Shown: positions 1,475 through 49,638 of the stretch, piece after piece
How the letters are laid out: the number at the start of each line of letters is the position of its first letter
Position numbering within the stretch: the first letter of the stretch is position 1
Virus record (IMG/VR): IMGVR_UViG_3300045988_171725
Span: 32,001-96,000 of that record
DNA: 64,000 nucleotides
DNA from: a virus
Strand: one strand, 5' to 3'
Position numbers and translations under genes: made by a program
Notes under the pieces: model-generated
What the model saw: the letters and a program-made list of their open reading frames with translations, nothing else
What the model was told of the DNA's origin: nothing
Databases searched by the model: none

Positions 1475-2341
1475 ATGATAAAACAAGTAAAAAAGGAAGT
1501 TGAAGAAGAAAATATAATAGACAGCGTGTTATCGTCTGAAACGAATGAAACCATAGATCCTACCGAAGGGTTGTCGGAAGAAGATTTAGCAAATAGGCGA
1601 GAAGTTTTGTCGATATTTCATTATGACCCATTTGAAAGAGAATGTTTATCAGATCGTAAAAAAATGTATAGAGATGTTACCATAATGGTCACACCAGATC
1701 TCTCAACTGATTTACCAAAACAAAGAGGATGTATTGATTTGGTTCGAAGTTATTTGAGAGCCGATAAAATTTCGGTAGCAATTCAAGAGCTCACGAAAGA
1801 TGCGGATACGATGATAAATAATGATAAAAAATTAAAAACCTTGCAGGATTTTCAAAAGACAACGAGCGACATAATCCAAAAAAACTTAAAAGATTTTGGA
1901 TTTAGTGAGCGTTATTCGTTAGCGAAAAGTAAGGGTGTCGGAACACTTTCTTATATAATGCGTGAAAGCGAGGAAGTCGACCGCGATGACGAGAAAATAA
2001 ACATTTACGACGTTGAAACAAGCAAAAGTATGCAGTTGGCAAGCGATATAAGCGCCGAATCGTTTTTTAAACAAATCGCGTTAAATGCGGGTGATTATAA
2101 GGATATCGTAACGAAACAGAAAAAGTTAATCAAAGAATTGACGGACGAAAACAAAAAACTTAAAGAAGAAAATCGGCTTATTTACGAACAGATAACCAAA
2201 GAAGAACTTTTGAAAGAACTTGCAAAGAAGCTCGAAGGGAAGGGTTTGGGGCGTAGAGAAATACAAGATATGGTTCTCGCAGAAATTCATTACGATGATA
2301 ATGAAATAAAAGAGATGAAGAAGCGAGGTAAAAATAAATGA
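1475..2341 (+). CDS. Hypothetical protein, possibly the small terminase subunit (by position only)
   Basis: SD AAGGAG precedes ATG 1475. The stop overlaps the terL start (ATGA). The protein is 288 aa, acidic and coiled-coil-rich. No motif was recognised. Confidence 0.35.
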   Translation: MIKQVKKEVEEENIIDSVLSSETNETIDPTEGLSEEDLANRREVLSIFHYDPFERECLSDRKKMYRDVTIMVTPDLSTDLPKQRGCIDLVRSYLRADKISVAIQELTKDADTMINNDKKLKTLQDFQKTTSDIIQKNLKDFGFSERYSLAKSKGVGTLSYIMRESEEVDRDDEKINIYDVETSKSMQLASDISAESFFKQIALNAGDYKDIVTKQKKLIKELTDENKKLKEENRLIYEQITKEELLKELAKKLEGKGLGRREIQDMVLAEIHYDDNEIKEMKKRGKNK

Positions 2342-4242
2342 TAAGTTTATATAGCCGAAAAACAGAAACCGACCTTACGATACGTAAAAAAGAGTCGATG
2401 GATAAATATGTCGATTTGATTCAATGGGGAAGAGAAAACCCGACGAAATTTATCGAAGAAATTTTCGGGATACAACTTATCGACTTTCAAAAAAACCTTA
2501 TTCTCGGAACATGGACTTCAAATCGTGCGGTTTGGTGTGCCGCTCGTAACAGCGGTAAATCATTCTTGGTAGCGATATATGCAATGCTTCGAGCGCTCCT
2601 TTTGCCGAATTGCACGATTTATATCGTTTCAAACTCGGCTGACCAAGCGCAAGCGACCTTTAACAAAATTTGTAAATTATGCCGTGGTGAAGAACAGTCG
2701 GTTCAGACGGACCCTTGTATGTTTTATAACGAGTTAGTCAAAAGCAACGCCAACACCGATGGTTTTATAAAGAAACAAGGTAACTATTCACTCACGCTTT
2801 TTAACGGTAGCACAATTCAAACACTCGCAGCGAACCCTGATACTGCTCGTGGTCGCCGTGCGAATGTAGTTATATTCGATGAGGCGGCATACGTTTCTGA
2901 TGTTATGTATCAAGCGTGTTTGCCTTTCATCAACCAAGACCCGAACTTCAAAACAGGAAAAGGTTTCAATTCGAAGGTTCATCCGAAGACCTTCAACAAC
3001 CAGATTATAATGTGTTCTTCGGCAGGAAGTGTTAATACCGAGTGTTATAGAGCTTATAGACAATGTATAATAAATTCGATTATTGGTTATCCAGGATATT
3101 ACGCCGCAGATATAAACTGCGAGATGACGCTTCACCCTTACATAAACGGCAAACCCGTTCCAGCGATAGCGAATAAGGCTGAAATGGAAATGATAAGAGA
3201 TACCGATATCCGAAAATATAACACGGAATTTATGAATTTGTGGACAGATATGGAATCGCCCGATTCACTTCTTCAACGTTCCGTAATAATTCGTAACGAG
3301 AAAAAATATTTACCCGAAACCGCGAGTACCGACAAAACGAAAAAATACGTTGTTTGTTGGGATCCCGCCGTTCAACACGATAACAGCATTGTTTTAGTCG
3401 GGGAAATATTCAGAGATGAAAAGGTCGGCTTAAAGGGCAGGTTGGTAAATTGCTTCAATCTTATTGAGCCAGCGAAACAAAACGGCGGTGATCGCCAACC
3501 GTTACGTATGCCAGACCAAATCACTTGGGTTCGTAAGTTTTTGCGCGATTACAATAACGCAGAGAACCACGAATACACAAACGTAACGCTTCGAATGGAT
3601 TCAGGTTCAGGTGCAGGCGGTAAAAGTATACCAGATTACTTAATGCCGTCTTATACAGATGAAAACGGCGTTAGACATGTCGGTGTTTATGATAGTAAAT
3701 TCAATCCAGATAACGATGGTACGGGGACTTCTTATCAAGATATGCACAGAGACAAATTCCCCGAAGCAGTAGATTGTTTACAGGCGGTAGAGCCGCGTAA
3801 ATACAGAACCGAGATGTTCGGCGCGTTAACTTCGATGATTGCGCAAGATTACATCGAGTTCCCGCCATCACTTCCCTCGCGTGGAGAAATTGAAAACGAA
3901 GACGGCTCGGTATACAAGTTGTCGTTAGAGGAAACCCGCGCGTTACTCGAATTTGACCTTTTGAAAGACGAAGCGGTAAGGATGCAACAAACGAAATTGA
4001 CGACGGGCGAAGTAAAATACGCAATGCCAAGCGGCAAAGATCACGACGATAGAGTTTATTGCCTTGCTCTTTTCGCCTCTTATTTGGCAAATATGCGCCA
4101 AGCCGAAAACCGTGCGTCTGAAAATAACAACACGAGTGAATTTGCCGATTATATAATGAGCCGTATTAGAGAAGGCGACGGCAAAAAGACTCAAAACCCG
4201 TTCGCGGGTAAAACGAACCCGTTCGCGGGTAAAAAGTGGTAA
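2338..4242 (+). CDS. terL: Terminase large subunit
   Basis: 634 aa. Walker A-like CAARNSGKS, Walker B-like VVIFDEAAY, and nuclease-half acidic motifs VVCWDPA and GKDHDDRVYCLAL. It sits upstream of the portal-sized ORF. Confidence 0.85.
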   Translation: MISLYSRKTETDLTIRKKESMDKYVDLIQWGRENPTKFIEEIFGIQLIDFQKNLILGTWTSNRAVWCAARNSGKSFLVAIYAMLRALLLPNCTIYIVSNSADQAQATFNKICKLCRGEEQSVQTDPCMFYNELVKSNANTDGFIKKQGNYSLTLFNGSTIQTLAANPDTARGRRANVVIFDEAAYVSDVMYQACLPFINQDPNFKTGKGFNSKVHPKTFNNQIIMCSSAGSVNTECYRAYRQCIINSIIGYPGYYAADINCEMTLHPYINGKPVPAIANKAEMEMIRDTDIRKYNTEFMNLWTDMESPDSLLQRSVIIRNEKKYLPETASTDKTKKYVVCWDPAVQHDNSIVLVGEIFRDEKVGLKGRLVNCFNLIEPAKQNGGDRQPLRMPDQITWVRKFLRDYNNAENHEYTNVTLRMDSGSGAGGKSIPDYLMPSYTDENGVRHVGVYDSKFNPDNDGTGTSYQDMHRDKFPEAVDCLQAVEPRKYRTEMFGALTSMIAQDYIEFPPSLPSRGEIENEDGSVYKLSLEETRALLEFDLLKDEAVRMQQTKLTTGEVKYAMPSGKDHDDRVYCLALFASYLANMRQAENRASENNNTSEFADYIMSRIREGDGKKTQNPFAGKTNPFAGKKW

Positions 4243-4255
4243 AAGGAAATAAAAG

Positions 4256-4672
4256 ATGATTGGAAAATTAGTAGTAGATTACGAAGAAGTAAGTTTGGGA
4301 GATTTGTTGGAGTTTTTAATTGATAAAGGTATAGAGTGTTGTGTTGATGGGGATAATATTTATACATATTTAGAAAATTACAAAGGGGTTCGGGAAAACT
4401 CTATAATAGTGAATAAGAAGAAAATACAAAATTATTTCTTCAAAGAATTAACCTCACCGCCGACTCGCACTCCGACAAATTATGTGCAAACTTGGCTTTT
4501 AGAGAAATTCAACGAACAAGAACGTCTTCGCTTCGAGGAACAACATCAAGCCGAATTAAAAAAGGCACAGGAGAATATCCAGAAGGCGATGGAAGAGTAT
4601 AAACAGTTATACACAAAATACGTAAATCAACAAAACAAGGAGGCGCAGTCCGATGGCGGATCAAACAACTAA
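4256..4672 (+). CDS. Hypothetical protein
   Basis: 138-aa ORF with an upstream purine-rich SD, packed between terL and the portal gene (20-nt overlap with the portal start). Confidence 0.5.
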   Translation: MIGKLVVDYEEVSLGDLLEFLIDKGIECCVDGDNIYTYLENYKGVRENSIIVNKKKIQNYFFKELTSPPTRTPTNYVQTWLLEKFNEQERLRFEEQHQAELKKAQENIQKAMEEYKQLYTKYVNQQNKEAQSDGGSNN

Positions 4673-6602
4673 AAAACGCGGAAGACCGCGCAAAATTGCA
4701 GTAGATGAAGATGAGAAGATTTTAACCGATAACGCGAGTGAAACGCTTATGATGGAACAGAAGAGCGCGGCGGGAACGAACGGGAAAGTAACCATTAATC
4801 AAGTGGCGGAGAGTTTATTCTCGTTGTACGGGAGTGTTCTTGGCACTTATAACGGGAAATGGGGGGAAAACAACATAAACCTTTACAACCCGTTTTTGCA
4901 GAACTCGCGATTGAAGATGATAAACGCGTCCCCAGTAACGGAGACGCCCGAAGAAATCGCGCAAGCGTTGAAAGACCCAGGGTCTCACGAAGAAGAGCTT
5001 AAATCGGTCTCGGCAGGGCTTTCTGCTCGGCAATACCTTTATTACAAGATATTGCGTGAAGCGTGCGATGTCCCGATGTACAAGAGTTACTTTTTACCCG
5101 AAACGCTCGAAGACGCGAGCGAATACACAAGTAAAAAATTCCGCGAGGAAGAAGCTTTTGTGGAAGAGTGGAAAGATAAACTCGACCCGCAGGCTTTGTT
5201 CAAAAGAATCGGGATGGAAGTCAAGAGAGAGGGAAAACCGTCTTATATATTCAGACAATGTATATATGAAGACGAGGGGAAAAAGCGCGTTAAATACGTA
5301 ACGTTCCAAAAACTCCCTGCCGCTTATACCAAACTCACAGGAATTGGCGAGCATGGTTACATTGCGAGTTTTAACCTTATGGTATTTATGAACCCCGCAT
5401 TTTCGCCGTTGCAATACCCCGAATTCATACGTAAGATTTGGGATAGCATTATTACTGGCAGAATCGTGTATCGCGACAATAAAGGTAATTATGCGGTAGA
5501 TGCCAACAAACTTGCGCAATTTACATACGACGACGAAGGACAGGAACGTAAAGGGACGATAGAAATCGCTAAACAGGCGGCTTCGACGGTTTATTTGTAT
5601 TGGGTGCAGTTGCCGCAAGACCTTTGCTTTACTTTTATGAGCGACGGTTCTAACGCATGGTCGGTTCCCGACACGATAAGCCTTTTCTCGGACCTTCAAG
5701 AATTAAGCGATTATTCAACACTTGCAGGCTTGATAGCGAGCAGCCCGTTGACGGCTGTTCTTACAGGTCAGGCAGAATTTATAGACGGAGCGCAGCCAGG
5801 TCAAGATCAGACTAAGATCAGACCGACGACGCTCAATGCGTTCCAGAACTTTTTTAATTCAATAGTTTCTGGAAACGTAAATGCTTTCTTTGGACCGTTC
5901 AAAGATATGAAATTACAGTCGTTGCCGAATATACCGAATAGCAGCGACATTAAAACGAAGGCGGTTCAAAACTTTATTTCCTCGGCAGGAGAGGGTGGTT
6001 TGATTGTTGCAACCGATAAACCGTCGGTAGCGATGATTAAAGGCGCACAAATGCTTGCCGAGTCTCAATACGATTATGTCACAAGACAAATCGAAACAGC
6101 CACAAACACTGTACTTGAAAAATGGTGCGGTTGTAAATATAAATGGAAGCTTAAACTTTGGGGCGGAATTTATACTTTTGACAGTCAAGTCAAGAACATG
6201 AAAGAGCTTGTGTCTTCGGGCGCAACGTTCGTCCTTCCAAAATTAGCTTCTGCTTATGACATGTCTCTCAGGCAGGTACGCGGAGTATCGAGCTATATTG
6301 ATGAGAACAAGTTGTATGATAAATTCAAGACATTAGGTTGGGCGCAGAGCATACAAAACGCACAGGCTCGTAGCAGCTCGACACAGGATTCTAATGGCGT
6401 TGGACGTACAGCATTGGACGATACCGATATAGAAAACGATTCCACGGCACAAAGCAGAGAGACGGGCGCTAACATCACCGAATTGAAGGAAGATTATGTC
6501 GCTCAACATATTTGCCCGTTGTGCGGGAGCGAAGATGTTGAAGACGGTCATTTCTTATGCTCGGAATGTGAAGAAAAGATGGAATTAGACGGGGAGGAAT
6601 AA
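4653..6602 (+). CDS. Portal protein (by size and position), with a C-terminal CxxC...CxxC zinc-ribbon-like tail
   Basis: 649 aa. SD AAGGAGG precedes ATG 4653. It lies immediately after terL and before the scaffold and capsid genes. The C-terminus reads HICPLCGSEDVEDGHFLCSECEEK. No portal motif was recognised with certainty. Confidence 0.6.
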   Translation: MADQTTKKRGRPRKIAVDEDEKILTDNASETLMMEQKSAAGTNGKVTINQVAESLFSLYGSVLGTYNGKWGENNINLYNPFLQNSRLKMINASPVTETPEEIAQALKDPGSHEEELKSVSAGLSARQYLYYKILREACDVPMYKSYFLPETLEDASEYTSKKFREEEAFVEEWKDKLDPQALFKRIGMEVKREGKPSYIFRQCIYEDEGKKRVKYVTFQKLPAAYTKLTGIGEHGYIASFNLMVFMNPAFSPLQYPEFIRKIWDSIITGRIVYRDNKGNYAVDANKLAQFTYDDEGQERKGTIEIAKQAASTVYLYWVQLPQDLCFTFMSDGSNAWSVPDTISLFSDLQELSDYSTLAGLIASSPLTAVLTGQAEFIDGAQPGQDQTKIRPTTLNAFQNFFNSIVSGNVNAFFGPFKDMKLQSLPNIPNSSDIKTKAVQNFISSAGEGGLIVATDKPSVAMIKGAQMLAESQYDYVTRQIETATNTVLEKWCGCKYKWKLKLWGGIYTFDSQVKNMKELVSSGATFVLPKLASAYDMSLRQVRGVSSYIDENKLYDKFKTLGWAQSIQNAQARSSSTQDSNGVGRTALDDTDIENDSTAQSRETGANITELKEDYVAQHICPLCGSEDVEDGHFLCSECEEKMELDGEE

Positions 6603-11720: not shown

Positions 11721-11823
11721 AAACGTGTAAATTGCGGGACAGCAGGTTCGAAACTGTTTCCTTTTGACTCCTTACCGAGAGGATTACCGCTTTTTATATA
11801 TTTTTGTAAGGAGGATATTAAAA

Positions 11824-35911: not shown

Positions 35912-38900
35912 ATGGATTTTAATAAAAACATAGGTGATATAGTTTATCATAAAAATTTTGGAAAGGGAAAAGTTACTAAAATTGACAGAGATGGTGACAG
36001 TTTGTCGATTGAGGTTTCTTTTGAAGAAGCTGGAAAACGTAAATCTTCAGGATTAGGTGTTATACCAAAAACTGCGCAATTTAGAGGCGTTGATTTTCAA
36101 TCTTTTTTTTCAGATACAAAAGCCAAAACAAAATCTTTATCGGGAGAAATAAGTAAAAATCGTGTAGTTGATACAACGTCTTATAAAGGTTATAGTTTTG
36201 AAAAATTACCAGAAAGTGATTTAAAGGCAATTCAGGAAGCCGTGAGAACTGGCGTTATAAAAGGCGTAGAAGATTTAAAAAAAATGTTACCAGCGGGCAG
36301 AACTATACCTTTGGAATATTTAAAATTATTAGAGGGTAAAAGCCCGACTGGCGAAAGATTACATGAGTATCAGGAAAGTGGCAAAACCGCAGAATTATAT
36401 AAAGATATTTTTAAGGGTATAAAAACAATAAGTATAACGCAGGGTAGTAAAATTCTTTTTGGTGATGATTATGCGGACGAGAATCAACTTAATAAATATC
36501 AAGAAGAAATCAACAAAAAAATTGCCGAAGTTAATAAAAAAATAGAAAGTGCTGATATAAAAACAAGAGCGATTTTAAATGATCGAAAAGCAGAGTTAGA
36601 AGAATCTAATAGAGAGTTACAGCGGCAAAGAAAACAAGCAAAAGATCAATATTCTGCTAAAGGTGGCACAGTCTTTCATAGCTTTGTCGAGATGTTGGCA
36701 CTTAATAAACTCCCGAAACTTAAAGAGGCTCTTTATTCTGGGGATAAAGAGCTCGCAGAGAATTTAATCAGAAATTACTTTTCAAAAGGTGCCACCGCCC
36801 AAACTTTAATAAAAGATAGCTCGACTAATTTTTCGGAATCGGATTCTGAAATTTTAGATGAATTTTTAAGTAAAATTAAAGATTTTGTTAATGTTGGTGG
36901 CGGAAGCGGCAGCTTCGCAACTGGTTTACAAAATTATGTAAACTTTTTAAAAGATAATAACATCACTTTAACCGATGCTGTTGAAAAAAGTATTGGCTTT
37001 GTCACGAACATCAATGATGAGTTGGTTAAATTTGTCGGAACGGTAGATGCGCTGTTCAGCGGATATCTTTTAGATCTAAAAACTGGTTCTATGCACCCAA
37101 ATGCAATTGCTTGGCAAGTTAATATGGGCAATTTCATACAGACAATGCTTGGCGGAGAGCCTGCGAAACATTTAGGGGCTTTCAACCCTGGCATGTATGG
37201 TAAAAGGGCAGGATATTTACCAGTTGAACAAATACCGTTGGAAACAATGAAAAAACTTATTGTTCAGGCGGCTATGGGAGAAAGAACCGACATTGATTTA
37301 ACCAAGTATGTAAAAGGAAGCGTTAGCACAGGCGTTGTAAAAAGAAGAGGCGAAGAGAAACAAGCTACCTTTATTAATAGTAAAGAAATGTATACTGGTG
37401 GTTACGGAGCAGAAAAACCAGAGTTACAAAAAGACATAGACAAACTAAATCGCGAAGCTAAAGAATTAGTCGAAAGCATAAAAACACTAAAAGGCGACGA
37501 TCTTGAACATATTTTAAATCAGATATATAGCACTAAAGATTATTCGCAAGGCGGAATTGAAAGTAATAAGTTTTATCGTCATGGATATTTCTGGGATCTC
37601 GTTCGCAGTATGTTGCCGTATGATATTTCTACTGTTTTAAATTATGCGATGAACGAGGGTGCAGCAATCCCTGCTACTAAGGGCGTTGGAACAAAAACAT
37701 ATAGAATAGAACAAGGCGAAGACGAACCGATTGCTGAAATAGATGTTCCAACTGTTTTAGGTATAAGTTTAAAGCAGTGGGCAAAATTGGCCAACATACT
37801 GTCTGAACTTCCTGATGGCGCAAATAAGGTGAAAAGACTTGCCGAATTGTTTGAAAAAGAATTCAAAAGTTTTAGTGTAGATGAACAAAGAAAAGTATTA
37901 TCCTCGTTCGAAACATTAATGACTCGAGAAGAAAATTTTAATCCAGAATATATTAAATTAAAAAAGCAGCAGGAATTATTGCGTGCAAAAATTCAAAAGC
38001 CTGAATCCTTTGGTGATGTAAATGTAGAAGAACTTCAGAAGGAATTAGATAAAACAAATGAAATTGTTTCTGAAATGGAAAAGTCTGGCGAATTGAATTT
38101 TTATCAAAATTTTGAAACCGCTTGGACAGACGTTGCCGATGAAATATCATGGAATAACCGCGAACTTCTGCAAGAGAGTATGACGGATTTTAAATCTGTG
38201 AAAATAGCAAGTGAAGATGCGAGACGTGGCGATAGGGAATATATGCCAGATGTTTTCGACTTAGAAACCGATCAAGATGGGCAACGTTATTATTCTGCGA
38301 GTGAATTCGAGACAGACCCAATTAAAAGCGCGACAATGACGGCGAACAGATTAGGACGAATTTTAGATTATTCTGCAAGAATTGATAAAGCGATAGAGCC
38401 GATGGCGCAAGAAATGGGAGTTTCGGTGGTTGATTTGGCAAAAACATTATTGCGAGATTTTGCCGAACAGACTGGAAGTTCCGATTCGTTTAATCGTTAT
38501 ATTAGAAGTAAAGAGTTGGCGGAAGACTTTAAAAAGCAATTCCCAAGTTTCGAAGGCAAAATCACAAAAGATGTAAGTAATTGGATTTATGACCGTTTAG
38601 ATTCCACTATCAAAGAAGAGCGCGAAGCTTTACTTGGAGTGACTGAAAGTCAAGAAGCGGGCGAAGTCACAACTTATAAAATCGGACCAAGCGGGGAGAT
38701 GTTAGATAAACATGCAACAAAGCCTTATGCGTTATTGCAAAATATATTAGGTAGAAGACTTTATTCTACTCTTTATAAATCTACAGATTCTATTCCGATA
38801 GAAGTGCTCGATGATTTAATTAAAGGTAAATCTTTAGAGTTGACGGAAAGAGTGGGGGCGGATTTGCCAGCCTCGTCAGATCACTCGAAAGAAGCCGTAA

Positions 38901-41499
38901 AAAAACGCGAAGCGCAAATAAGAAAAATAGATGAAGAGGCTGAAGAGAGAGAGAAAAGTTGGGTTGAGCAGTTTTTAAATTACGACGAACTCTTACCCGA
39001 AGCTCAAGAGCTTTTACAAAACTATATCAACACTTATAAAGAATATAAGGCAGCCGAAAAAGAACTATCCTTTTATGGTGGCGAAAACACACCAGAACAA
39101 AAATTCGAGGAATCTGATTGGAGTTATAAAGAAAGGTTAAAAGATTGGGAAAAGGTAAAAAGAAACTTCGATGAAAAAAAGAAGCAGATGGAAGAGGTTA
39201 ATGAAAACATAAAAAAGACGTTCCCATCTGGTAGAGTCGAGGGTTATAGTTCTGAAAAAATGTCGGAATTCTTAAAAAGGCGCGCAGAAGAAGGCATTGA
39301 GCAACAAAGACAAAAAAATATCGGATATGCTGCATTGTATTCTTATAGGTTCTCTGATAAAAAGAAGGCCGAACTTACACCCGAAGAAATTAATGAATAT
39401 TTGGATTACTATTCTGAACAATTTGGAATGACCACCGATGAGTTGTTGAATCTTTATAGACAAGAAAATGTTTATATGGGATTCAACGACTTTTTAAAGA
39501 AAATTGCTCAAGGACAAGATAAACGCCTGGTTTATTTTTCACCAAAAAAAATTAAAGCAGCAACAATAAAAGGCGCAGCCGATGGTGTTACTCGGGGTGT
39601 TACTAATACGGTAGAAAATATAGATCAGAAAAGCGTTGAAGAGAATGTTGCTAAAGCCGTATCGGATTCCATAAATATTGGCGAGGTTGAACCCAAAGAA
39701 GCAAGGAAGATATTACGAGATCCTGAGACCAACACACCAATAAATTCTGACGGAACGATAAACGAAGAACAGTGGTTAAAAGAACTAGATGAGAGCTTAC
39801 AGCGTTATCCAGTAGAACTTGAAAATGAATATTTTAAAAGGTTATTCAAAGATTCGCCTGATGATTATGTCCGTTTTGAAAAAGAGGTTAAAAGAACGAA
39901 GAAAGATGGAAGAAGAAACAGAACAGATCTGCGTAAATTTTTCAAGAGTGGAAATTGTGGCGACTTTGACTACAAAGATCTTCAACACGATCTCTATAAC
40001 ATAGAAATGCGAGAGGAACTTCCAGACTATTTAAAAACAAAGGAAGAGATATCCGAAGAAGAACATGGTGTCGTAATCGAAGGTGAAAATAAGGATACAC
40101 AAAAAGAGCTCATTCAAACAACAAAAGAAGAAGTTCAAGTTAAAAAACAAGGAATCGAACAAGAAAAACAAATCCAAGAAGTTCTCGATGACAAAACAAA
40201 GGAAACCAAGAAAAATGTTGATGTCGTTGAAGAAACTGGACGAGTTGAAAAACAGAACCTTGAATTAGAAAAGCAAGTACAAGAAGCAAAAAAAAAGAAA
40301 GTTACTGCAGAAAAAGATGTCAACACCTCTTTGTCGTCCAAAACTTCGATGATACCCGATAATATTTTAAAGGTGCAAGCGACAAGTGCTGACATTTCAG
40401 ATTTATCTAGAACTAAAGCAACTTCGATTACAACTGATTACGAAGGTCACACAATTGGCAAAACTTATAAATATCTTAATGATAAGGTTTTTGCTGATTA
40501 TGGTTCTGGTGGTCTTCAGGCGTGGATCGAGAATGCTAAACAGATTGGTATTGATGCAGCTAAAGCCGAATTGATAGGGATTTTGACTAAAGTTCCATCG
40601 TATAAGAAATCATCTGGCGGTTTGAGTAAAGCTGGAAGAACTGCGTTTGATGAAATAATGACCGATGCTTTTGGCGCTTCATATCAACCGCAACAAGGAC
40701 TTGGAGCCATATTATCCGAAGTCCAAGGTATTCATAAAGATACGTCTTCGATAGATGCGAAGATGGATTATTTGTCTGGCGGCGGAGGTGGCGCCCCATC
40801 TAATAAAATGGAAGTTTCATCTGACGGTGGTGCTGGAGGCGGAGATGAAGGTGGTAAAAAACCACCGAAATCTGGCGGTAGAAAAGGCAAGAGCGATGAA
40901 GAGAAGGCACAAGCGGATACTGAAAAACGGCAGAAACAAGATATAAGGGAATATCAACAGTATATTAACAGAGTTATAAGCCTTGAATCTCAGATTGATA
41001 AGCTTCAAAGGCAAGCAACATTAAGCGGCGGTAAACACAAAGATGCTATTTATGGAACAATTGACGCGCTTAATGAAGAGCTTGGGGATCTCAATCGTAA
41101 TAACGACGCGCTCAAACAAAGGGTTGCGACCGAACAAGCAGCAACAAAAGAATCGATCGACGCAACAGCAGCTCTTAGGAAACAATCAAATGCGCAAAAG
41201 AATCTTGTAAGCGTAAAAGGCGCGACCTCTATCTGGGATATGATGGCGAACGATATTCGCCGTGCGACCATGCGTGTTGCAGACTTCGGAATTGCTGCGA
41301 AGATTTTGAACAAGATCCCGCAGGATATACAGAAGGTAATCCAGTATACGAAAGAATTGGACGCGGCGATGACGAATATTCGTGTCGTCACGGGTGCTAC
41401 GGCGGAAGAGGCTCAAACGCTCGCACAAGGATATACACAACTTGCAAAAGAATTGGGGATAACCACTGTCGAAGTTGCTAATTCGGCAAACGAGTGGGT
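35912..41499 (+). CDS. Tape measure protein, exon 1
   Basis: SD GGAGGT precedes ATG 35912. It is long and K/E-rich, with coiled-coil character. The last ~100 codons begin the conserved tape-measure core (...MTNIRVVTGATAEEAQTLAQGYTQLAKELGITTVEVANSANEWV). The exon end is set by P1 pairing (see findings). Confidence 0.75.
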
Positions 41500-42673
41500 T
41501 AACAAATGTCTGGCTCACTATAAACTCCTTTAATTGCTGGAACCCCCTTAGAGCCATATAACTACAACATAACGATGAAATAGGCGTAAGTGTGATAGTT
41601 AAAAATATATGGATTGGGAAATCAGCAGCCAAACCTCGAACAGAGGAAGGTTCAACGAATATGTTCCACGAGTGTGGATAATGGGGAGCTCTACATAGAG
41701 AAATCTATGCGAAAGATATATTCTGAACTTCTGAGGAAACTCAGAGAAAATTCTATAAAAGGAGGTGAAATATTTGTGATAATAGAAAGTGAAGTTAAAA
41801 TGGTTATAAATCAATATAATTTTGATTATTATAAAAATCTTGGTTACGATATTCAAAAATGTGGACAACGAATTTTTGTAAAAGTTTCTGATTTACCAAA
41901 AACATCTGGGACAAAAATCCATACGATATGTGAATATTGTGGAGAAATAGTAGAAAAATCATACCGAAGGTATATAGAATCTATCGAATGTGGGAAAAAC
42001 TGTTGTTCAAAATGTTTGAAATACAAAATTCCTGAAAATGCTTTAGAAAAATACGGATGTCGTTCTACTTTAAGAATTCCAGAAATTCATGAATCGGTAA
42101 CTAAAAATAATCTTAAGAAGTATGGTTGTGAAAACCCTCTTGAATCAGCAGAAATTAGGGCTAAAGGTGTTCAGACTATGCAGAGTCGTTATGGTTGTAG
42201 TTATACCCTTCAAAGTGATGAATTACGTGAAAAGTGTAATCGGACATTATATGAAAATGGGAACGATATAACTGCGACAAGCAGACAACAAAGATATTTG
42301 TGTGATTTATACAAAGGAGAATTGAATTATCCTATTTGGATTTATCACATAGACATTTTGTTGTCGGACAACATATGTTGCGAATATGATGGAAGCGGTC
42401 ACGATCTTAGTGTTAAATTAGGTAATGAAACAAGAGAAAACTTTATTAGAAAAGAAAATAAAAGAATAACCTTTTTAACAAACCACAATTATAAGTTATT
42501 TAAAATACTTTCTAACACAGATATTTTGCCTAGTGATGAGATACTTTTAAACATAAAGAAACGGGCTTTTGAAATATTAAAAGTCCGAAATTATATGTAT
42601 TATGAGTACAATTTAGACACAAATATAGAATCTTTTAAATGATAAACTAAATTTAAAAGTAACACAATTACAG
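41500..42673 (+). mobile_element. Group I intron 1 (ribozyme core 5' of its ORF)
   Basis: P1 pairs exon AGUGGGU (41493-41499) with GCUCACU (41513-41519), with a U-G pair at the splice site. P/Q/R/S-like elements are ATTGCTGGAA (41533-42), AAATCAGCAGCC (41619-30), GTTCAACGAATAT (41650-62) and AAGATATATTCTGAAC (41713-28). The last nucleotide is G (42673). Confidence 0.7.
41776..42642 (+). CDS. Intron-encoded homing-endonuclease-like protein (zinc ribbon + KYG repeats + PD-(D/E)XK-like core)
   Basis: SD AAGGAGGTG precedes GTG 41776 (alternative ATG 41800); the track start at 41614 would translate the ribozyme core. Motifs: CEYCGE...CCSKC; repeats EKYGCRSTL, KKYGCENPL and SRYGCSYTL; core HIDILLSDNICCEYDGSGHD. 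Confidence 0.7.
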   Translation: MIIESEVKMVINQYNFDYYKNLGYDIQKCGQRIFVKVSDLPKTSGTKIHTICEYCGEIVEKSYRRYIESIECGKNCCSKCLKYKIPENALEKYGCRSTLRIPEIHESVTKNNLKKYGCENPLESAEIRAKGVQTMQSRYGCSYTLQSDELREKCNRTLYENGNDITATSRQQRYLCDLYKGELNYPIWIYHIDILLSDNICCEYDGSGHDLSVKLGNETRENFIRKENKRITFLTNHNYKLFKILSNTDILPSDEILLNIKKRAFEILKVRNYMYYEYNLDTNIESFK

Positions 42674-43250
42674 ACAAGGTTACGCAGGGGAAGAAGCCAA
42701 TCAATTGATTGTCGCTTCCTCGAAACTCGCTAAACTCGGTATGATTTCGACCACTGAGGCAACTAAAGATTTGACGAGCGCGATAAAAGGCTTTAAACTT
42801 TCGACAGAAGACGCGATGTCGGTTGTCGATAAATTGACAAAAATAGACCAAGTGGCTGCAATTTCCGCAGGAAATTTAGCGGAAGGTCTCGCGCGAGTCT
42901 CCACTACCGCTCAACAAGCAGGGCTTTCGCTCGACGAAACCGCCGCAATGGTAACTACGATTACCGAAGTTACGCAGCGTGACGCAAGCACGGCGGGTGA
43001 GGCGCTCAGAACTCTTATTTCGAGATACTCTAACGTTAAAGCGGGCGTATTCACGGATATGAGCGATAGCGCCGAAGAGACTTCGGGTAATATTAACGAT
43101 ATCGAAAAAGTATTGGGTAAGTTAGGGATTAGAATTCGTACTTCTGGAACTGAAATGAGAAGTATCGAAGATGTCCTTGACGAATTGGCTGAAAAGTGGG
43201 ATACACTTGATGATGTAAGTCGTAATGCAGTTGCGAGTGCTTTTGCTGGT
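42674..43250 (+). CDS. Tape measure protein, exon 2
   Basis: It carries the conserved core QGYAGEEANQLIVASSKLAKLGMISTTEATKDLTSAIKGFKL...STAGEALRTLISRYSNVK...AVASAFAG. There is no SD or ATG of its own. Confidence 0.8.
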
Positions 43251-44688
43251 AGGATGACGTATGCCAGAAATTATGGAAACATAATTTGTTAAGCACTATA
43301 AATAAATAACAAGGAAGATTGCTATATCGGTGAAGTTCTGGGGACAGATAATACCGAGGAAAGATTAAATATTAATAGTGAATAAGTAAATAACAAGGAG
43401 GTGATTTTCATGAAATGGGAGCAGTGGCAGATAGATTATCTTAAAGAAAATTGGGATAAATATTTAGATAAAGATTTGATGAAATATTTGGGCGTTAGCC
43501 CAGATTGTTTCTATGCTAAAAAGCGAGAATTAGGGTGCCTCCGATTCAAATGGACAGAGGAAAAGATAGAATTGTTAAAGAAGTATTATCCGATCGCTTC
43601 TTGGGAAGAGCTATTTCAAATTTTAGGTTGTAATAAAAGATCTTCGATAACTTCTATGGCTCACTTAAATGGTATAAGCCGAGATGTTTATAATAACAAC
43701 AAATTATCAAACTCCGACAAAGAATTTGTCAAAAACAACCACATGAATATGTCTGTTCATGAAATGTCTGACGTTATTGGTAAAAGAGCTGAATATATAT
43801 CAAACTATGCACGTAATAATCATATAAGAGTTTATTTTGGGCACGAGATAAGACCGTGGGACGAAGAATTATTCATTGAATTATATCCAAAATATACAAA
43901 CAAATATTTACATGAAAAATATTTTCCGTATTTAAGTAGGGCACAATTGCGTTCGCAAGCTAAAAAATATGGATTGGTTAAAAATAAAGAGAAAAGTGTT
44001 AAATGGTTTGATAAAGAGCAACTTTTAGAAGATTTAGAAAAGGCTACAAGAGAGCTGGGAAGAGTCCCTTTGTTAATCGAGTTTCAATCGCTCGGCTTAC
44101 CAACTGAAGCGACATACAGAAGATATTTTGGGTCTGTAACGAAAGCATTTGAGCTTATAGGAATAAAAAGACCATGCTATGTTCATGGTCAATGCCATAA
44201 GTTAATGGTATATAGAGATAAAAATGATAATTTTTGTCTATCTATGTCGGAAGTAATTATAAGTAACATTCTAATAGATTTCGGCATAACATTTGAAAAA
44301 GAAGTCCCTTATAAAAATTTTGTTGACGACGAGGATATTGGCGAAAAGATTAGCGATTGGAAGATTGGTAATAAAATAATCGAATATTTTGGAATGGTAG
44401 ATTATAAAGATTATAATGATGGTATGAATTTAAAAATCGAAATTTGCAAAAGACACAATATTTCATTATTAGCATTATATCCTGAAGATCAAAAAGATAT
44501 CGATAAGATGAAACAAAAGATAAAAGAATTTATTAATATTTAAAATCCGTAGAGACTATACGCAGTCAACCGTATAAGGTTAAGATATAGTCCGACCTGC
44601 ACGTATAATCCAATTAAAAAGAAGGTGCAGAAATAGCCAGAAATGGTTATTCGCCTGTATTATTACAGGTATGAAAAGTAACAAAAAG
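43251..44688 (+). mobile_element. Group I intron 2
   Basis: P1 pairs exon CUGGU (43246-50) with GCCAG (43263-67), with a U-G pair at the splice site. The S element AAGATATAGTCC (44582-93) matches the classical consensus 12/12. P7 pairs GACTATA (44554-60) with TATAGTC (44586-92). The last nucleotide is G (44688). Confidence 0.8.
43410..44543 (+). CDS. Intron-encoded homing-endonuclease-like protein (Myb/HTH-like repeats, HE-associated repeat, PD-(D/E)XK-like C-terminus)
   Basis: SD AAGGAGGTG precedes ATG 43410. The segment LLEDLEKATRELGRVPLLIEFQSLGLPTEATYRRYFGSVTKAFELIGI resembles the 'homing endonuclease associated repeat'. The C-terminus reads SEVIISNILIDFGITFEKE...DWKIGNKIIEYFG. Confidence 0.7.
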   Translation: MKWEQWQIDYLKENWDKYLDKDLMKYLGVSPDCFYAKKRELGCLRFKWTEEKIELLKKYYPIASWEELFQILGCNKRSSITSMAHLNGISRDVYNNNKLSNSDKEFVKNNHMNMSVHEMSDVIGKRAEYISNYARNNHIRVYFGHEIRPWDEELFIELYPKYTNKYLHEKYFPYLSRAQLRSQAKKYGLVKNKEKSVKWFDKEQLLEDLEKATRELGRVPLLIEFQSLGLPTEATYRRYFGSVTKAFELIGIKRPCYVHGQCHKLMVYRDKNDNFCLSMSEVIISNILIDFGITFEKEVPYKNFVDDEDIGEKISDWKIGNKIIEYFGMVDYKDYNDGMNLKIEICKRHNISLLALYPEDQKDIDKMKQKIKEFINI

Positions 44689-47421
44689 GTACGTCAACGT
44701 GAATCATTCAATATATTATTAAGCAACTGGGATCGTGTAAAGGAACTCACTGAAGAATCCGCTAACGCCGCAGGAACTGCCGACGAGAAGTATTCCGCTT
44801 ATATGGACTCCATGGAGGCGGCGACGAAGCGGCTTCAAAACGCGTGGGAAGGATTTACTCAATCGCTTGAAACAAGCACGGTAATGAAATTCCTCACGAA
44901 TTCAGTCGCGCTTTTGGTCGAGAATGCCGACAAACTCAAATATATAATAACCGTGTTTGCAGCTGCGAGTTCAGCAAAAATTTTTGACTTCTTTACCAGC
45001 AAAGGCGAAACAGGCGGGTTTAAAGGTTTAATCGCCAACATCCCGTTTATAGGCAGAGGAACGAAAACTAACAATATACTCGAAAGTATTGACAAAAAAG
45101 TCGGAGATATTCGAGGAGAGGTTCAGAAAGACAAAAGTGGAATTACTAAAAATGGTAGTCTAATTAGTAAGATTGGGCAATACGCAGCCGATAAACGTAC
45201 TGTAGGAAAAGATCGTAAGTTTATAAAAGATTATGAAAGTGGTAAATTCGATTCTGTAACTGATCCATCAATACAAAACGCTTATTATAAAAGATATTTG
45301 GGTGCCAAACAAAATTTATCATCAGATGATAACGAAGCGTTAAAGCGTTTGCTGGATGCGAAAGCTGCGAGAATGACCGCATTCGCTCAAACAGCAGCCG
45401 TCTCTGGAATTGCTACCTTAGCAACTCAATTAATGACAACGAAGCAAGTTTCTGGTTACGGCCAAACCGTTGAAGAAACTGGTGGTGACAAAGCGTTAAG
45501 AACTGGGCTTGCCACTGCTGGCTCAGTAGCTGGTGCGGCAACCGCCCTTATCCCCGTTATAGGACCTATGATAGCTCCAATCGTTTCTTCTTTGGGCTCA
45601 ATTGCTGGCGAAGGTTTGGCTGGATTAATAGCTAAATGGGCTCATAAAGACGAGCTTCAAATGAAGCAGCGTGTTGCCGAAGCCAAAGAAAATCTTTCTG
45701 CACTTGGCGATATAAAAACCGCTATCGAAAATAACGAGGATTTATTGAACAAAGACTCCTATACATCTAAAGATTACGAAAAGTTAAAATTATACGCCGA
45801 TTCTTTAAGAGAAAAATTCGCTAATAATGAAGATTTAGCTAAATTGTTTTTAGCCGATGTTCATAATCTTGATATTGGAACATTTACGACAATTGAAGAC
45901 GTTCTCTCTCAAATTACTAAGGGGAATGTCGATATCAATAAGCAACTTAAGAGGCAATTAGAGCTCACGACTGCCAGATTAACGGTAGAGAGCACCCTCG
46001 GCAAACAGGAAGAAGATAGAAAAAAAATACAAGAATACGTTGGTAAAAAATATGAATCGGATCGATCTGGTGTAAAAGCAAATTATTTATTTAAAGATCC
46101 AAATGATACATATTATACACGTAGTAATTTATTGGATTTTTATACAAGAGAAGATATTGCTAACCTTCTAAACACTGCAACTTATACTACTAATGGTGTT
46201 ACCTATCAAGGCAAAACATATAGTGGACCTGAAAAAATAGACTATATTCAAATAAAAGGAAACGATATAGAAGAAGTTCTTCAAAATGCGCAAAAAATCC
46301 TTGAAGAGGTAAGAAAAGGTTATTCTGAAACAAATAAAAATCTTGTATCTGAATGGGAAACAATTGTAAATAATTTATCAAAACAATTAGATAACCAGAA
46401 AAAATTAAATGCAAAACTTTTATCTACCCAAGTTGATTATGCTTATTTAACGTCCGATATTTTAAACACTAAGTCTCGTGATGAAATACGTGATCTTGGT
46501 ATGGAAGGCGTTGTTAAGATAATTCGTGACGAACTAATTTCGCAAGGTGTTGGTGTGGTTGATGAGAATGGAGTAATTCATCAAGACGCTTATGATGCCA
46601 TCGTTAAAAAAATACGTTCCGACTCGACTTTGAGTGATTATATAACGAAAGATATTCGCTCGATTGGGGATCTTATTTCTAAAGACGATATACAAGGTAT
46701 TGAATCGTTTGCAAGAGCGTTTGGTTTAACAACCGAGGCGGCGAAAGAGCTTGGTAAGCAGTTCGGATATTTAACTCAATCAATGGGTTTGATGAACGTT
46801 CAAGAGACGACGGAATACTATGAGAAACTGAGTACGGTATTTTCAAATTTAAGTTCGAATGTCGCTTTGACCGCAGGACAGATCAACAGTCTTTTGACGA
46901 CCTCTGAACTCAAAGATTTGCTTCCGTATTTGATGAATCAAGACGACCCTGACGCTTTGATAAAGGAACTTTATAAGAGAATTTACGGCGGCGGGCAGGA
47001 TGTCCATATGGAGAACGCGCTTTATGACGCGACCATGGGAATGTCGACCGATAAATTCAGAGAATACTTGCAAAACAAAGGGTTAAAAGAATATGTTGCT
47101 GAAATCGACAAAGGCGGGTATACCACCTTATCTCAAATTAGAGATGCAGTTAAAGAATTTGATGAGACAGACCCGAGACGCCAAGAGTTTTTGGAATATC
47201 TTGAAACGATAAATTATACTTACTCCAAAGACTTAACAGCTTTAGAGAAGCCGTCTAAGTATATTAAATCTCAACTCGAAGAGCAAATAAATAATCTCCA
47301 AGAGCAAAAAGATGCTTTGTCTCAAATTAATGACGAGAGAGAAAAAGAACTCAATCTAATTAAAGCGAAACAAGCGCTCGAAGACGCTCGGAAAGAAAAG
47401 AGAAGGGTTTATAGACAGGGT
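44689..47421 (+). CDS. Tape measure protein, exon 3
   Basis: It starts VRQRESFNILLSNWDRVKELTEESANAAGTADEKYSAYMDSMEAATKRLQNAWE, continuing the core from exon 2. It contains a hydrophobic Gly/Ala segment (TAAVSGIATLA...GPMIAPIVSSLGSIAGEGLAGLI) and long coiled coil. Confidence 0.8.
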
Positions 47422-48660
47422 AAACAAATATGCCCTTAAGTAACTATATCGGTTAAAACCTAGAAGTAGGTAAGACCGAGGTAAGATAAATTTTAAAATG
47501 TTAATATGCAATAAAATATAAATAAATTAAAAAAGGAGGTGATGACATGGAAAATAATATTAAAGAAGATTTGATAGCGTTAACCAACGAACAGGCAAAG
47601 AAGATTAATGCTGAAATTATTGAAAGATTTACGGGGAAAGACGGTAAGGCAAAGTTAAAAATACGCTCTTTATCATATCCCGAAAAAGGAGTAAGGGTCG
47701 TTGATCGATATAATTTCTTGCACTCCACTGCCCAATATAGATATTTTAACGCCGTGACTTGTAAAAATGATTTATTGAGACATGAAGAAATAACATCTAG
47801 AATTGATATAATTGGAGATTATATCAACACTGCGACAAAAATTTTATGCAAATGTAAAATTTGTAGCAATGAATGGATGGTAACTCCAAACAAATTATTA
47901 CAAGGTCGTGGATGCCCTAAGTGTGCTTCACAAAAAGCACATCGGGCTTACTCTAAATCACATGAAGAATTTATAAATGAATTAAAAAACGTCAACCCTT
48001 CTATCATGATACTTGATGAATATTATAATAATCGCACTAAAATAAGATACAAGTGTAATATTTGTAATAAAGTATCTATGTCTACTCCTTGTAAATTATT
48101 AAACGGGGAGAGCGGGTGCCATTTTTGTAAAAGCTCGATCGGTGAACAGAAGATATTCTGTTTTTTATTTGCCCACAAAGTACCATTTGAGAGAGAAAAA
48201 TATTTTGAAGATTGTAAAGATAAAGGGAAATTACCTTTTGACTTTTATTTATCTGATTATAATATTTGTATTGAATTTCAAGGTGAACAACATTTCCGTC
48301 CAGTAGACTTTTCATATACTCCAACTGAGGAATCGAAAAATAAAGCCGTTGAAAAATTTAAAGGTATTCAGAAGCGTGATAAAATAAAAGCAGAATATTG
48401 TAAACAGAATGGAATACGTCTTTTAATTATTGATTATAAACAAATAAAAAATATAGAAAGCATATTAACAAAAGAATTAAATTTATCAACCGTAACGACT
48501 GCAGGATCTTTGTGGTAACATAAAGATTGAAGTTACTTCAATATGTTTTAGACATATTGTAATATACAGTCTGAACTCGTAATATAACGAAATGAAATAC
48601 GAGAGTAAGGATTAACGTCCTTGCCGCCACATTTATTGTGGTCATAAAAGTAACAGATTG
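47422..48660 (+). mobile_element. Group I intron 3
   Basis: P1 pairs exon AGGGU (47417-21) with GCCCU (47432-36), with a U-G pair at the splice site. It shares CTATATCGGT...ACCGAGG and the 3' motif AAAAGTAACA with intron 2. An S-like element AATATACAGTCTGAAC lies at 48561-76. The last nucleotide is G (48660). Confidence 0.7.
47547..48518 (+). CDS. Intron-encoded homing-endonuclease-like protein (two zinc ribbons + PD-(D/E)XK-like core)
   Basis: SD AAGGAGGTG precedes ATG 47547. Motifs: CKCKIC...CPKC and YKCNIC...CHFC; core LPFDFYLSDYNICIEFQGEQHF...KRDKIK. Confidence 0.75.
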   Translation: MENNIKEDLIALTNEQAKKINAEIIERFTGKDGKAKLKIRSLSYPEKGVRVVDRYNFLHSTAQYRYFNAVTCKNDLLRHEEITSRIDIIGDYINTATKILCKCKICSNEWMVTPNKLLQGRGCPKCASQKAHRAYSKSHEEFINELKNVNPSIMILDEYYNNRTKIRYKCNICNKVSMSTPCKLLNGESGCHFCKSSIGEQKIFCFLFAHKVPFEREKYFEDCKDKGKLPFDFYLSDYNICIEFQGEQHFRPVDFSYTPTEESKNKAVEKFKGIQKRDKIKAEYCKQNGIRLLIIDYKQIKNIESILTKELNLSTVTTAGSLW

Positions 48661-49638
48661 ATTGGCTTCGTTATGGAAAGCAATGAGGAAGCAATTGCCG
48701 AAGCGCAAAAAAATCTCGAAAACTTAAATACTCAAAAACGCCAAGAAAATCTTCAGACGCAGATCGACACGCTTCAGATGCAGAAAGACATTATCGAAGC
48801 TCTTCCAAATCAGGCTCAACTTGAACAAACCAAAAAGATTTGGGAATTGTGGGCAGCGGATAAGGGAACGAAAGGAAGTCTTGCTTCCGTAACCGAAGGC
48901 GTAACGATGTTGGCGGATGCTTATACAAATGCCACAAATCGGATGAATATGCGTGCTAAAACAGAAGGGGTTCTAAATACACCTGATGAAAAGAGCAGTA
49001 TGCAGACATCTGATGAAAATACTAACCCCGTTATCACCCTTAGTGAAACTCAAATAGAATATACCAAAGCCTTAGTTTCTAACGTGGATGATATTAGAAA
49101 TATCTTATTAGGGAAACATACTAAAAACTTCCAAAATATGTTGGATTTCGTGAACAAAAACAACATGTTACAAGGCGATTATGCACGGTGGGGAGAAATG
49201 TTCAGAGCTGCTGGTATATTAAACGAATGGAATTCTTTGTCTGACAAAGAGAAAGAAGCTATTAGAAGCCAAGCAAATACGAGAGCGGGTGGAGACATTT
49301 CCTTCCAAGGCGGTAAAGCTCTTATCAACGAACTTGGAACCGAAGCGGTCATCACACCTGGCGGCACGCTCACCGCGCTTCCTTCGAAGACGGGTATCGT
49401 CCCTGCGGACATAACCCGAAACGTTTGGGCGCTCGGGGAAGTTGCTCCGACGTTGGTCGCACAGCTCGGTTCGCTTACGCAAAAGACGCTTTCTGGCAAC
49501 GCTGGAAACACGACCTACGAAGAGGGTCAATACTTCGACAACTTTACGATGAACGTTTACCCCGCAAAAGGCGACGACTTGAGCAAGATCCTGGAGCAAG
49601 CACGTGCACAAATGCGGCTTACGCGTCATAATAATTAA
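48661..49638 (+). CDS. Tape measure protein, exon 4 (C-terminal part)
   Basis: It begins IGFVMESNEEAIAEAQ..., with no SD of its own. The C-terminal pattern GGKALINELGTEAVITPGGTLTALPSKTGIVPADIT is typical of tape-measure C-termini as I recall them. Confidence 0.75.
   Translation: MGFVMESNEEAIAEAQKNLENLNTQKRQENLQTQIDTLQMQKDIIEALPNQAQLEQTKKIWELWAADKGTKGSLASVTEGVTMLADAYTNATNRMNMRAKTEGVLNTPDEKSSMQTSDENTNPVITLSETQIEYTKALVSNVDDIRNILLGKHTKNFQNMLDFVNKNNMLQGDYARWGEMFRAAGILNEWNSLSDKEKEAIRSQANTRAGGDISFQGGKALINELGTEAVITPGGTLTALPSKTGIVPADITRNVWALGEVAPTLVAQLGSLTQKTLSGNAGNTTYEEGQYFDNFTMNVYPAKGDDLSKILEQARAQMRLTRHNN

Follow-up and report, generated by a model that had tools for sequence, protein, structure and literature searches.

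Within a 64,000-nucleotide stretch of virus DNA (positions 32,001 to 96,000 of IMG/VR record IMGVR_UViG_3300045988_171725, one strand, 5' to 3', hereafter the window), positions 41500 to 42670 make up a mobile phage-type (IA) group I intron, built of P1, P3 to P9, P7.1 and P9.1 and devoid of P2. The element interrupts the gene for the tail tape-measure protein (TMP) of an uncultured human-gut phage, within the conserved TP901-type core of that gene. We regard it as practically certain that we are dealing with a functional group I intron whose 5' splice site follows U41499. The other end is less ordinary: as placed by comparison of alleles, the structural boundary of the element lies between A42670 and C42671, and the exons would probably be ligated at this very point. 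To the statement as a whole, a functional group I intron with a 3' end at A42670 rather than at a guanosine, we give a probability of about 60%; if this is the true splice site, a non-G end would be a rare variant. Slightly less firmly, we favour the view that the gut-phage family to which it belongs is a natural group I ribozyme ligating its exons after a terminal adenosine, with the 3' site set by a P10 helix of 5-6 base pairs stacked on P1.

The boundary is given by natural alleles. Intron-minus alleles are present in the same metagenome as intron-plus ones, and an intron-bearing contig (L073) equals an intron-less one (L157) with TAAC...AATTA added between TGGCT and TAGACAAGG, the two being identical at 40/40 nucleotides upstream and 38/40 downstream. 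In terms of the window, the inserted element therefore spans 41500-42670 and its last base is A. The intron-minus alleles read TGG TTG AGA CAA (L004), TGG CTG AGA CAG (L006) or TGG CTT AGA CAA (L157, L168, L186, L189), with AGA kept in all. An earlier reading of the window, made from its letters only (hereafter the sequence-only reading), had placed the 3' end at G42673, with a split Val codon GU|A. This does keep the frame, yet the proposed end is doubtful: the junction leaves a gap where all 13 uninterrupted homologues (28-60% identity) have an extra residue, usually Arg (W-x-R-Q-G-Y), and it removes three nucleotides beyond the insertion. A TMP without the Arg scores 8.1 bits lower against PF10145 and 10.5 bits lower against TIGR01760. 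Among 50 hits to the pattern TGGST + 0-4 bases + ACARGG, none was a TMP allele with the sequence of that junction (TGGSTACAAGG).

Further evidence comes from relatives. More than 20 contigs, drawn from several metagenomes, have an intron at exactly this TMP site, and they form two lineages. The window belongs to type A, with L001, L002, L005, L009, L133, L141, L142, L007/L008 and L152, in three exon contexts; the sister lineage, type B, comprises L037, L059, L073, L130, L131 and others and has a textbook P7, GACUAU/AUAGUC. Covariation was followed in an alignment of 14 distinct sequences, on which RNAalifold recovers P1, P4, P5 with its extensions, P6a and P7. The cells expected to be paired in P1, P4, P5, P6a, P7 and P10 are so in 98.4% of cases, against 31-45% with slid partners, and seven pairs display changes on both sides (two each in P1 and P6a, one each in P5, P7 and P10).

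The P10 helix bears directly on the 3' end. UGUCUG-GCUCACU (41507-41519) pairs with AGUGGGU followed by CAGACA over 13 contiguous positions. A P10 contiguous with P1 has 6 base pairs only for an exon 2 starting at 42671, and 0 for a start at 42674; runs of at least 6 base pairs occur at 0.7% of window positions. The pair G41512-C42671 becomes A-U in type B, the remaining changes in P10 being wobbles, and GUCU (41508-11) is invariant in a P1 loop that otherwise varies. On the intron side, the tail UAACACAAUUA is invariant but for one C to U change, behind three unrelated hairpins, and its UU (42668-69) can pair with AA 41726-27 as P9.0. A comparison with introns 2 and 3 of the same gene goes in the same direction. 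These have a common 3' tail, UAACA + 4 nt + G|, the terminal G standing 10 nt beyond the U with which UAACA begins; A42670 stands at 11 nt and G42673 at 14 nt. The tail of intron 1 runs UAACACAAUUA|CAG, A42670 being one base and G42673 four bases past the expected terminal position. The three introns also share a motif, AAAAGUAACA, near their 3' ends (42655-42664, 44674-44683 and 48646-48655), for which no pairing partner was found.

Splicing would begin with the standard chemistry, an attack on the 5' splice site after U41499 by a free guanosine that P7 binds at G41657-C41723. Ligation of U41499 to C42671 would then be placed by the unusually strong P10, with A42670 in the usual position of the terminal G. 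The ligated exons would read ...GAGUGGGU|CAGACAAGG... and encode ...E W V R Q G Y..., as compared with ...GAGUGGGU|ACAAGG... and EWV-QGY for a junction after G42673. Junction strings GAGTGGGTCAGACAAGGTTA or GAGTGGCTTAGACAAGGTTA would mean that the Arg is kept and that the intron ends in A, GAGTGGGTACAAGGTTA or GAGTGGCTACAAGGTTA that G42673 is used. Among tryptic peptides, ...ANSANEWVR and QGYAGEEANQLIVASSK would be expected if the Arg is kept, ...ANSANEWVQGYAGEEANQLIVASSK if it is lost.

To be fair, a good deal weighs against an adenosine end. Group I introns almost universally end in G, and this base is mechanistically important; in model ribozymes, its replacement severely impairs the second step. 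The guanosine pocket of P7 looks canonical in both lineages and nothing there suggests adaptation to adenosine. G42673 is only three nucleotides downstream, in frame, and a textbook P9.0 can form right before it, between CA 42671-72 and UG 41724-25. The covariation of 41512:42671 is a single event between two lineages, each of its changes being tolerated under a canonical model (U.G to U-A in a P1 extension; C-G to U.G in P9.0). A search of the protein database for a product spliced across the junction, transcript or protein, came up empty, the close matches there being all single exons. Finally, the loss of one residue, if only mildly harmful, could be spread by a homing endonuclease. The same intron may then be spliced at G42673, exon 2 starting at A42674 and the TMP of intron-bearing phages being short of one Arg, a possibility to which we give real but clearly smaller weight. 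An ancestral terminal G at 42670 would have mutated to A, and the ribozyme would have slipped to the next G, by chance in frame. No other junction both keeps the frame and obeys the terminal-G rule, and P9.0 and the canonical P7 pocket also speak for it; the loss of one residue in a TMP of 3,292 amino acids may be tolerated, and homing would carry the deletion along. Yet such splicing would take out 3 nt more than the insertion had added, delete a position filled in every homologue compared (lowering family-profile scores by 8-10 bits), yield an allele absent from the pattern hits and do without a P10 adjoining P1, while the 41512:42671 covariation and the invariance of GUCU would be left as coincidences.

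Use of both 3' sites, giving two TMP isoforms with and without the Arg, seems improbable: the sites are 3 nt apart and both in frame, with P10 for 42671 and terminal G plus P9.0 for 42674, but one site normally dominates in group I introns. Least credible is an element that no longer splices, either a decayed intron or a free-standing endonuclease gene dividing the TMP into separately made pieces: gene callers do report the exons as separate open reading frames (ORFs), and the Rfam scores of this lineage lie near the cut-off (48.5-53.1 bits), but the core is conserved with compensatory changes throughout the contigs just described, the guide sequence follows exon changes, ORF-less copies retain the full ribozyme, and the exons are collinear with single-ORF TMPs and have no start signals of their own at the junctions.

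Other candidates for the 3' junction were discarded. With U41500|A42672, the terminal base would have to be C or U depending on the lineage, and type B would have U-A at the 5' splice site; A41502|A42674 needs an A at -1 and gives K or E where there is mostly R. Pairings of the tail (CAAUUA with UAAUUG 41532-37, ACAC with GUGU 41592-95, AACA with UGUU 41662-65) were set aside, as none covaries. A copy with G at the position of A42670 was looked for and did not turn up: L155 (TAACACAATTGCAGACAAGG), a candidate for such a copy, matches by chance within a coding sequence, as L153 also does by chance. A search with a 16-mer of the tail gave mostly chance matches, the one in L023 lying in an unrelated kinase-like gene.

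At the 5' end, the U41499.G41513 wobble of P1 is invariant in 14/14 sequences, and the neighbouring pair, U41500:41512, is U.G in type A and U-A in type B; the 5' splice site therefore follows U41499, as proposed in the sequence-only reading. Two other P1 pairs change from G-C to C-G, along with the exon. Between P1 and P3 stands only AUAA, and there is no P2.

The ribozyme core is recognized by the Rfam model of group I introns, RF00028, at 41456-41746 (+), with 53.1 bits and E 3e-12 in a scan of a 1.6-kb stretch; this is above the gathering cut-off of 50 bits, so that the covariance model does not reject the core. Among relatives, L037 of the sister lineage reaches 78.7 bits and L002 48.5 bits. 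Scans of the whole 64-kb window, at gathering and E-value thresholds, reported no group I intron because of the speed filters of the scan; Rfam scans of long windows can thus overlook such ribozymes. The sequence-only reading had named four consensus-like strings, P (ATTGCTGGAA, 41533-41542), Q (AATCAGCAGC, 41620-41629), R (GTTCAACGAATAT, 41650-41662) and S (AAGATATATTCT, 41713-41724). All are in place, as are AGTGGGT (41493-41499), GCTCACT (41513-41519), CCTC/GAGG (41634-37/41643-46), the ORF (41776-42642) and AAAAGTAACACAATTACAG, ending at G42673. The Rfam alignment puts P, Q, R and S at P4, P4'/P6, P6'/P7 and P7', respectively, and adds P3, P8 and P9; together with the compensatory pairs of the relatives, the Rfam score bears out the assignment.

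Helix by helix, the relatives add the following. P4 (TGCTG/CAGCA in the sequence-only reading) does form; the helix is invariant and draws its support from the model only. The small CCUC/GAGG hairpin, noted at the place of P6, is P6a, with two compensatory pairs. The compensatory P7 is confirmed: A41659-U41721 of this lineage (nine sequences) gives way to C-G in its sister (five sequences), the other five pairs being invariant. At the sequence level, G41657-C41723 and the bulged C41656 are invariant in all relatives. By analogy with G264-C311 of Tetrahymena, we take G41657-C41723 to be the pair of the guanosine-binding site. P3, P5a and P8 stay paired in both lineages with different sequences: P3 is AUCCCUUG/CAGGGGAU in the sister lineage, fully paired with other bases, P5a is CCAUAUA/UAUAUGG here and UUGUAUAA/UUAUACAA there, and the stem of P8 differs while its GAAA tetraloop is kept, L8 and L9 both remaining GAAA. 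P5 shows a CG to UA change, with more compensated pairs distally according to RNAalifold. The P7.1 hairpin, lying between P7 and P3', covaries between lineages (CACC/GGUG or CAUUC/GAAUG at the same place in type B), and its presence there, a trait typical of subgroup IA, places the intron among IA-type phage introns. The predicted fold probably also includes a P9.2. RNAalifold further pairs the invariant GGUUCA 41649-41654 (P6'/J6/7) with UGAACU 41724-41729 (J7/9), extending P7; this pairing would compete with P6 and P9.0, and there is no variation in it. Elsewhere in the window, a P-like motif at 11730 was considered and is not an intron. Coordinates are collected in Table 1.

Table 1. Features of intron 1 and its surroundings in the TMP gene (window coordinates).
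Feature	Position	Strand	Remarks
Inserted element, 1,171 nt	41500..42670	+	begins with U, ends with A; ribozyme and endonuclease gene
P1 5' strand AGUGGGU (exon)	41493..41499	+	pairs with 41513-41519; 5' splice site after U41499
Guide 5' part UGUCUG	41507..41512	+	candidate P10 with CAGACA 42671-42676; alternatively a 2-bp P1 extension with U41500, A41501
Internal guide sequence, P1 3' strand GCUCACU	41513..41519	+	
P3 5' strand CUCCUU	41525..41530	+	pairs with GGGGAG 41683-41688, pseudoknot with P7; Rfam alignment
P4 5' strand UGCUGG ('P' of the sequence-only reading)	41535..41540	+	pairs with UCAGCA 41622-41627 ('Q')
P5 and extension	41543..41618	+	P5 41543-45/41616-18; P5a 41554-60/41606-12; distal hairpins; RNAalifold
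P6 (CC/GG) and P6a	41629..41650	+	CCUC 41634-37 / GAGG 41643-46, loop GAACA; two compensatory pairs in P6a
P7 5' strand GAAUAU	41657..41662	+	after bulged C41656; pairs with AUAUUC 41718-41723
P7.1 hairpin UCCAC GAGU GUGGA	41665..41678	+	between P7 and P3'; insert relative to the Rfam model
P8 CAUAGA-GAAA-UCUAUG	41694..41709	+	sister lineage AAUAAAAG-GAAA-CUUUUAUU
P9 UUCUGAG-GAAA-CUCAGAG	41729..41746	+	sister lineage UUUUAU-GAAA-AUAAAA
P9.1 5' strand AUUCUAU	41750..41756	+	pairs with AUAGAAU 42625-42631; endonuclease gene in loop
Endonuclease-gene cassette, 867 nt	41757..42623	+	absent from ORF-less copies L002, L009, L141
Putative homing-endonuclease ORF	41776..42642	+	288 aa, GTG start, Shine-Dalgarno AGGAGGUG at 41760-67
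Conserved single-stranded 3' tail UAACACAAUUA	42660..42670	+	ends with A42670, last inserted base
Disputed CAG	42671..42673	+	Val third base and first two of Arg AGA (exon, preferred), or P9.0 and terminal G (sequence-only reading)
TMP exon 2	42671..43250	+	42674 start on the junction of the sequence-only reading; ends at 5' splice site of intron 2

The endonuclease gene behaves as a unit that can be present or absent within an otherwise identical intron. Three type A copies are identical 304-nt introns that lack exactly the cassette and keep the full ribozyme; in them AUUCUAU and AUAGAAU stand one base apart and fold as the P9.1 hairpin. Type B has an ORF-less allele too, L059. The ORF therefore sits in the P9.1 loop, in line with its placement after the core, in a P9-region loop, by the sequence-only reading, and it shares its last codons with the 3' strand of P9.1. 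The GTG start at 41776 is supported by a homologue in type B (L073), where the N-terminus MIVETEVKMVIN is conserved. The ORF matches Pfam DUF7487 (7e-13) and PHROG 12131, 'homing endonuclease' (2.5e-38), and its product combines a zinc finger with KYG helical repeats (DUF7487), followed at the C-terminus by a nuclease of the EDxHD/Vsr-like kind. Across 192 homologues, some of them named 'very-short-patch-repair endonuclease' in their sources, C52, C77, C80, D193, E203 and H209 are invariant; in a set of 57, D193, E203 and H209 are again invariant and the catalytic motif is IEYDGxGHD. A search of PDB by sequence gave chance matches only, none of them to 3R3P. By structure, the AlphaFold2 model of the product (pLDDT 95.5) has as its top Foldseek match 3R3P, the catalytic domain of I-Bth0305I (probability 1.00, a weak E of 0.011, target TM-score 0.57), followed by Vsr (1VSR, 1CW0). 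This structural match and the IEYDGxGHD motif place the product in the EDxHD family, as a predicted homing endonuclease of the I-Bth0305I/Vsr-like kind. It would be translated from its own ribosome-binding site and would be expected to cut intron-minus TMP alleles (TGG YTK AGA CAA GGT, for example in L157 around GAGTGGCTTAGACAAGGTTATG), repair then copying the intron in.

Copies of intron 1 at this site may thus carry the ORF, lack it, or hold another ORF in the same P9.1 loop. As a case in point, L007 and L008 (IMGVR_UViG_3300045988_181905 and _175117, about 3590-4800) have a type-A ribozyme with a different ORF of 398 amino acids, coding for the same type of nuclease, with HTH-like repeats, KYG repeats and a DVEYDGWYWHRD nuclease motif, downstream of a promoter-like TTGACA-17-TACAAT. 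In L152 (about 3540-3640) the flanks of this variant are kept and the ORF is gone, leaving a remnant. The three contigs look like endonuclease-gene turnover within one intron.

As for the host gene, the called ORF 35912-41533 corresponds to the first part of a TMP of very large size; it runs 11 codons into the intron, to the UAA at 41531-33. Exon 1 spans 35912..41499 (+), and 187 phage records annotated as TMPs align in one piece with the spliced-junction peptide. With introns 1-3 removed, a single ORF of 3,292 codons extends over 35912-49638, collinear with uninterrupted tape-measure proteins, and the spliced product matches PF10145 and TIGR01760. Gene callers cut such intron-bearing TMP genes into separate ORFs. 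In base composition, the intron region is an AT-rich island, with a GC content of 0.26-0.35 against 0.46-0.49 in the exons. The window also codes for a terminase, a portal protein and tail fibres. Near-identical contigs, of 89-146 kb, come from human-gut metagenomes, and the nearest deposited relatives are Bacillus (Basilisk-like) phages and 132-kb Clostridioides phages, with 25-31% protein identity. A near-identity search against deposited phages gave only a 107-nt match to the core, in unannotated DNA of Serratia and Pectobacterium jumbo phages. In a collection of species genomes there was a single match, L152 (CAVKBM010000029.1), a 21.8-kb contig binned as 'Bacteroidaceae bacterium'; this label contrasts with the proteins of the phage itself (terminase, TMP), which resemble those of Bacillus and Clostridioides phages, and it may be a phage contig wrongly binned.

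The gut-phage element belongs to a known kind, TMP group I introns having been described in 2008 (PMC2504315). In Bacillus cereus-group prophages the TMP genes house the group I introns TMP-IVS1, -IVS2 and -IVS3 (Tourasse and Kolsto, 2008; PMC2504315). The likeness extends to up to three IA-type introns per TMP gene, with or without homing-endonuclease genes, to P1 and P10 fitted to each site and to presence/absence polymorphism among related phages (PMC2504315). By contrast, the phage of the window is an uncultured one from the human gut whose TMP core is only about 30% identical, its intron carries an endonuclease of the EDxHD type, and the inserted element ends in A. Endonucleases of this type have been known in phage group I introns since 2011 (PMC3239194), the prototype, I-Bth0305I, being encoded in the recA intron of Bacillus thuringiensis phage 0305phi8-36 (PMC3239194). 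Both are thus phage group I introns carrying a Vsr-like (EDxHD) endonuclease, 3R3P being the best structural match of the window nuclease domain, and the E-x-D...H-D motif of I-Bth0305I is kept here (E203, D205, H209, D210). However, the N-terminus of the window ORF has a zinc finger and KYG repeats (DUF7487), not NUMOD/HTH motifs, the host gene is not recA, there is no match to 3R3P at the sequence level, and the nuclease activity is a predicted one. As an intron, the element is routine: it adds gut-phage cases to the IA introns and homing endonucleases that have colonised conserved parts of TMP genes.

Phage IA2 introns include those of T4 td, nrdB and sunY, of the SPO1 DNA polymerase gene and the triple introns of Twort orf142. 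Common to them and to the window intron are the R and S core consensus, the extra P7.1, an ORF looped out from a peripheral helix and several related introns per gene, but the latter has no P2, one P7 pair changed to A-U and a non-G base at the 3' insertion boundary. For the adenosine end, the counterpart is the 23S rRNA intron of Coxiella burnetii, which, in the words of the title of a 2007 report by Raghavan and colleagues, 'lacks the canonical omegaG'; it is said to end in A and is reportedly self-splicing. That intron resides in an rRNA gene of an intracellular bacterium and has no sequence relation to ours; splicing was reportedly demonstrated there, and is predicted here. If ligation after a terminal A is true, Coxiella would be the only earlier natural case, and no phage protein-coding gene would have had one before. 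The family would provide a small system with natural variation, of about 20 alleles with and without the ORF, for the old mechanistic question of how the second step can work without a terminal guanosine, the 304-nt ORF-less version being convenient for biochemistry. Should the RNA instead slip to G42673, this would be a documented case in which a selfish intron, with every homing, costs an essential structural protein one residue.

The two further introns of the TMP gene have canonical ends (U at -1, terminal G). Intron 2 (43251-44688, GGU|AGGAUG ... AAAAAG|GUACGU) has a junction, AFAG|VRQRESF, that is collinear with homologues; for its ORF (43401-44543) the matches are Pfam HNH_repeat and PHROG 22655. 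Downstream of this ORF, at about 44590, comes an S-like AAGATATAGTCC; the ORF therefore divides the ribozyme core. Intron 3 (47422-48660, GGU|AAACAA ... ACAGAUUG|AUUGGC) is exactly collinear with homologues, its ORF (47547-48518) matching CapR/DUF4379 and PHROG 559, 'HNH endonuclease'; a near relative without it (L001) reads straight through, ...RVYRAGIGFVME.... Rfam gave no match on introns 2 and 3, probably on account of ORFs dividing their cores.

Related introns exist outside TMP genes. The 107-nt core match in the jumbo phages belongs to one of them: L010 (about 1916-3300; Serratia phage 2050HW, MF285618.1, about 95899-97300) has an unannotated related group I intron in an 'RNA polymerase beta subunit' gene, found also in the jumbo phages Haymo and Pectobacterium vB_ParM-25, with a canonical P7 (GACUA/UAGUC). 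Its 'putative endonuclease' ORF is upstream of P3, unlike that of the window intron, and it was of no help as a guide to the 3' end. Finally, L023 (IMGVR_UViG_3300002094_000010, about 1047-1330) has a small ORF-less related intron that interrupts the gene of a cold-shock protein (VKWF|...|NDRGYGF) and runs UGGUU|CAUUAUG ... AUGUUAG|UAAUGAC and ends with a normal terminal G.

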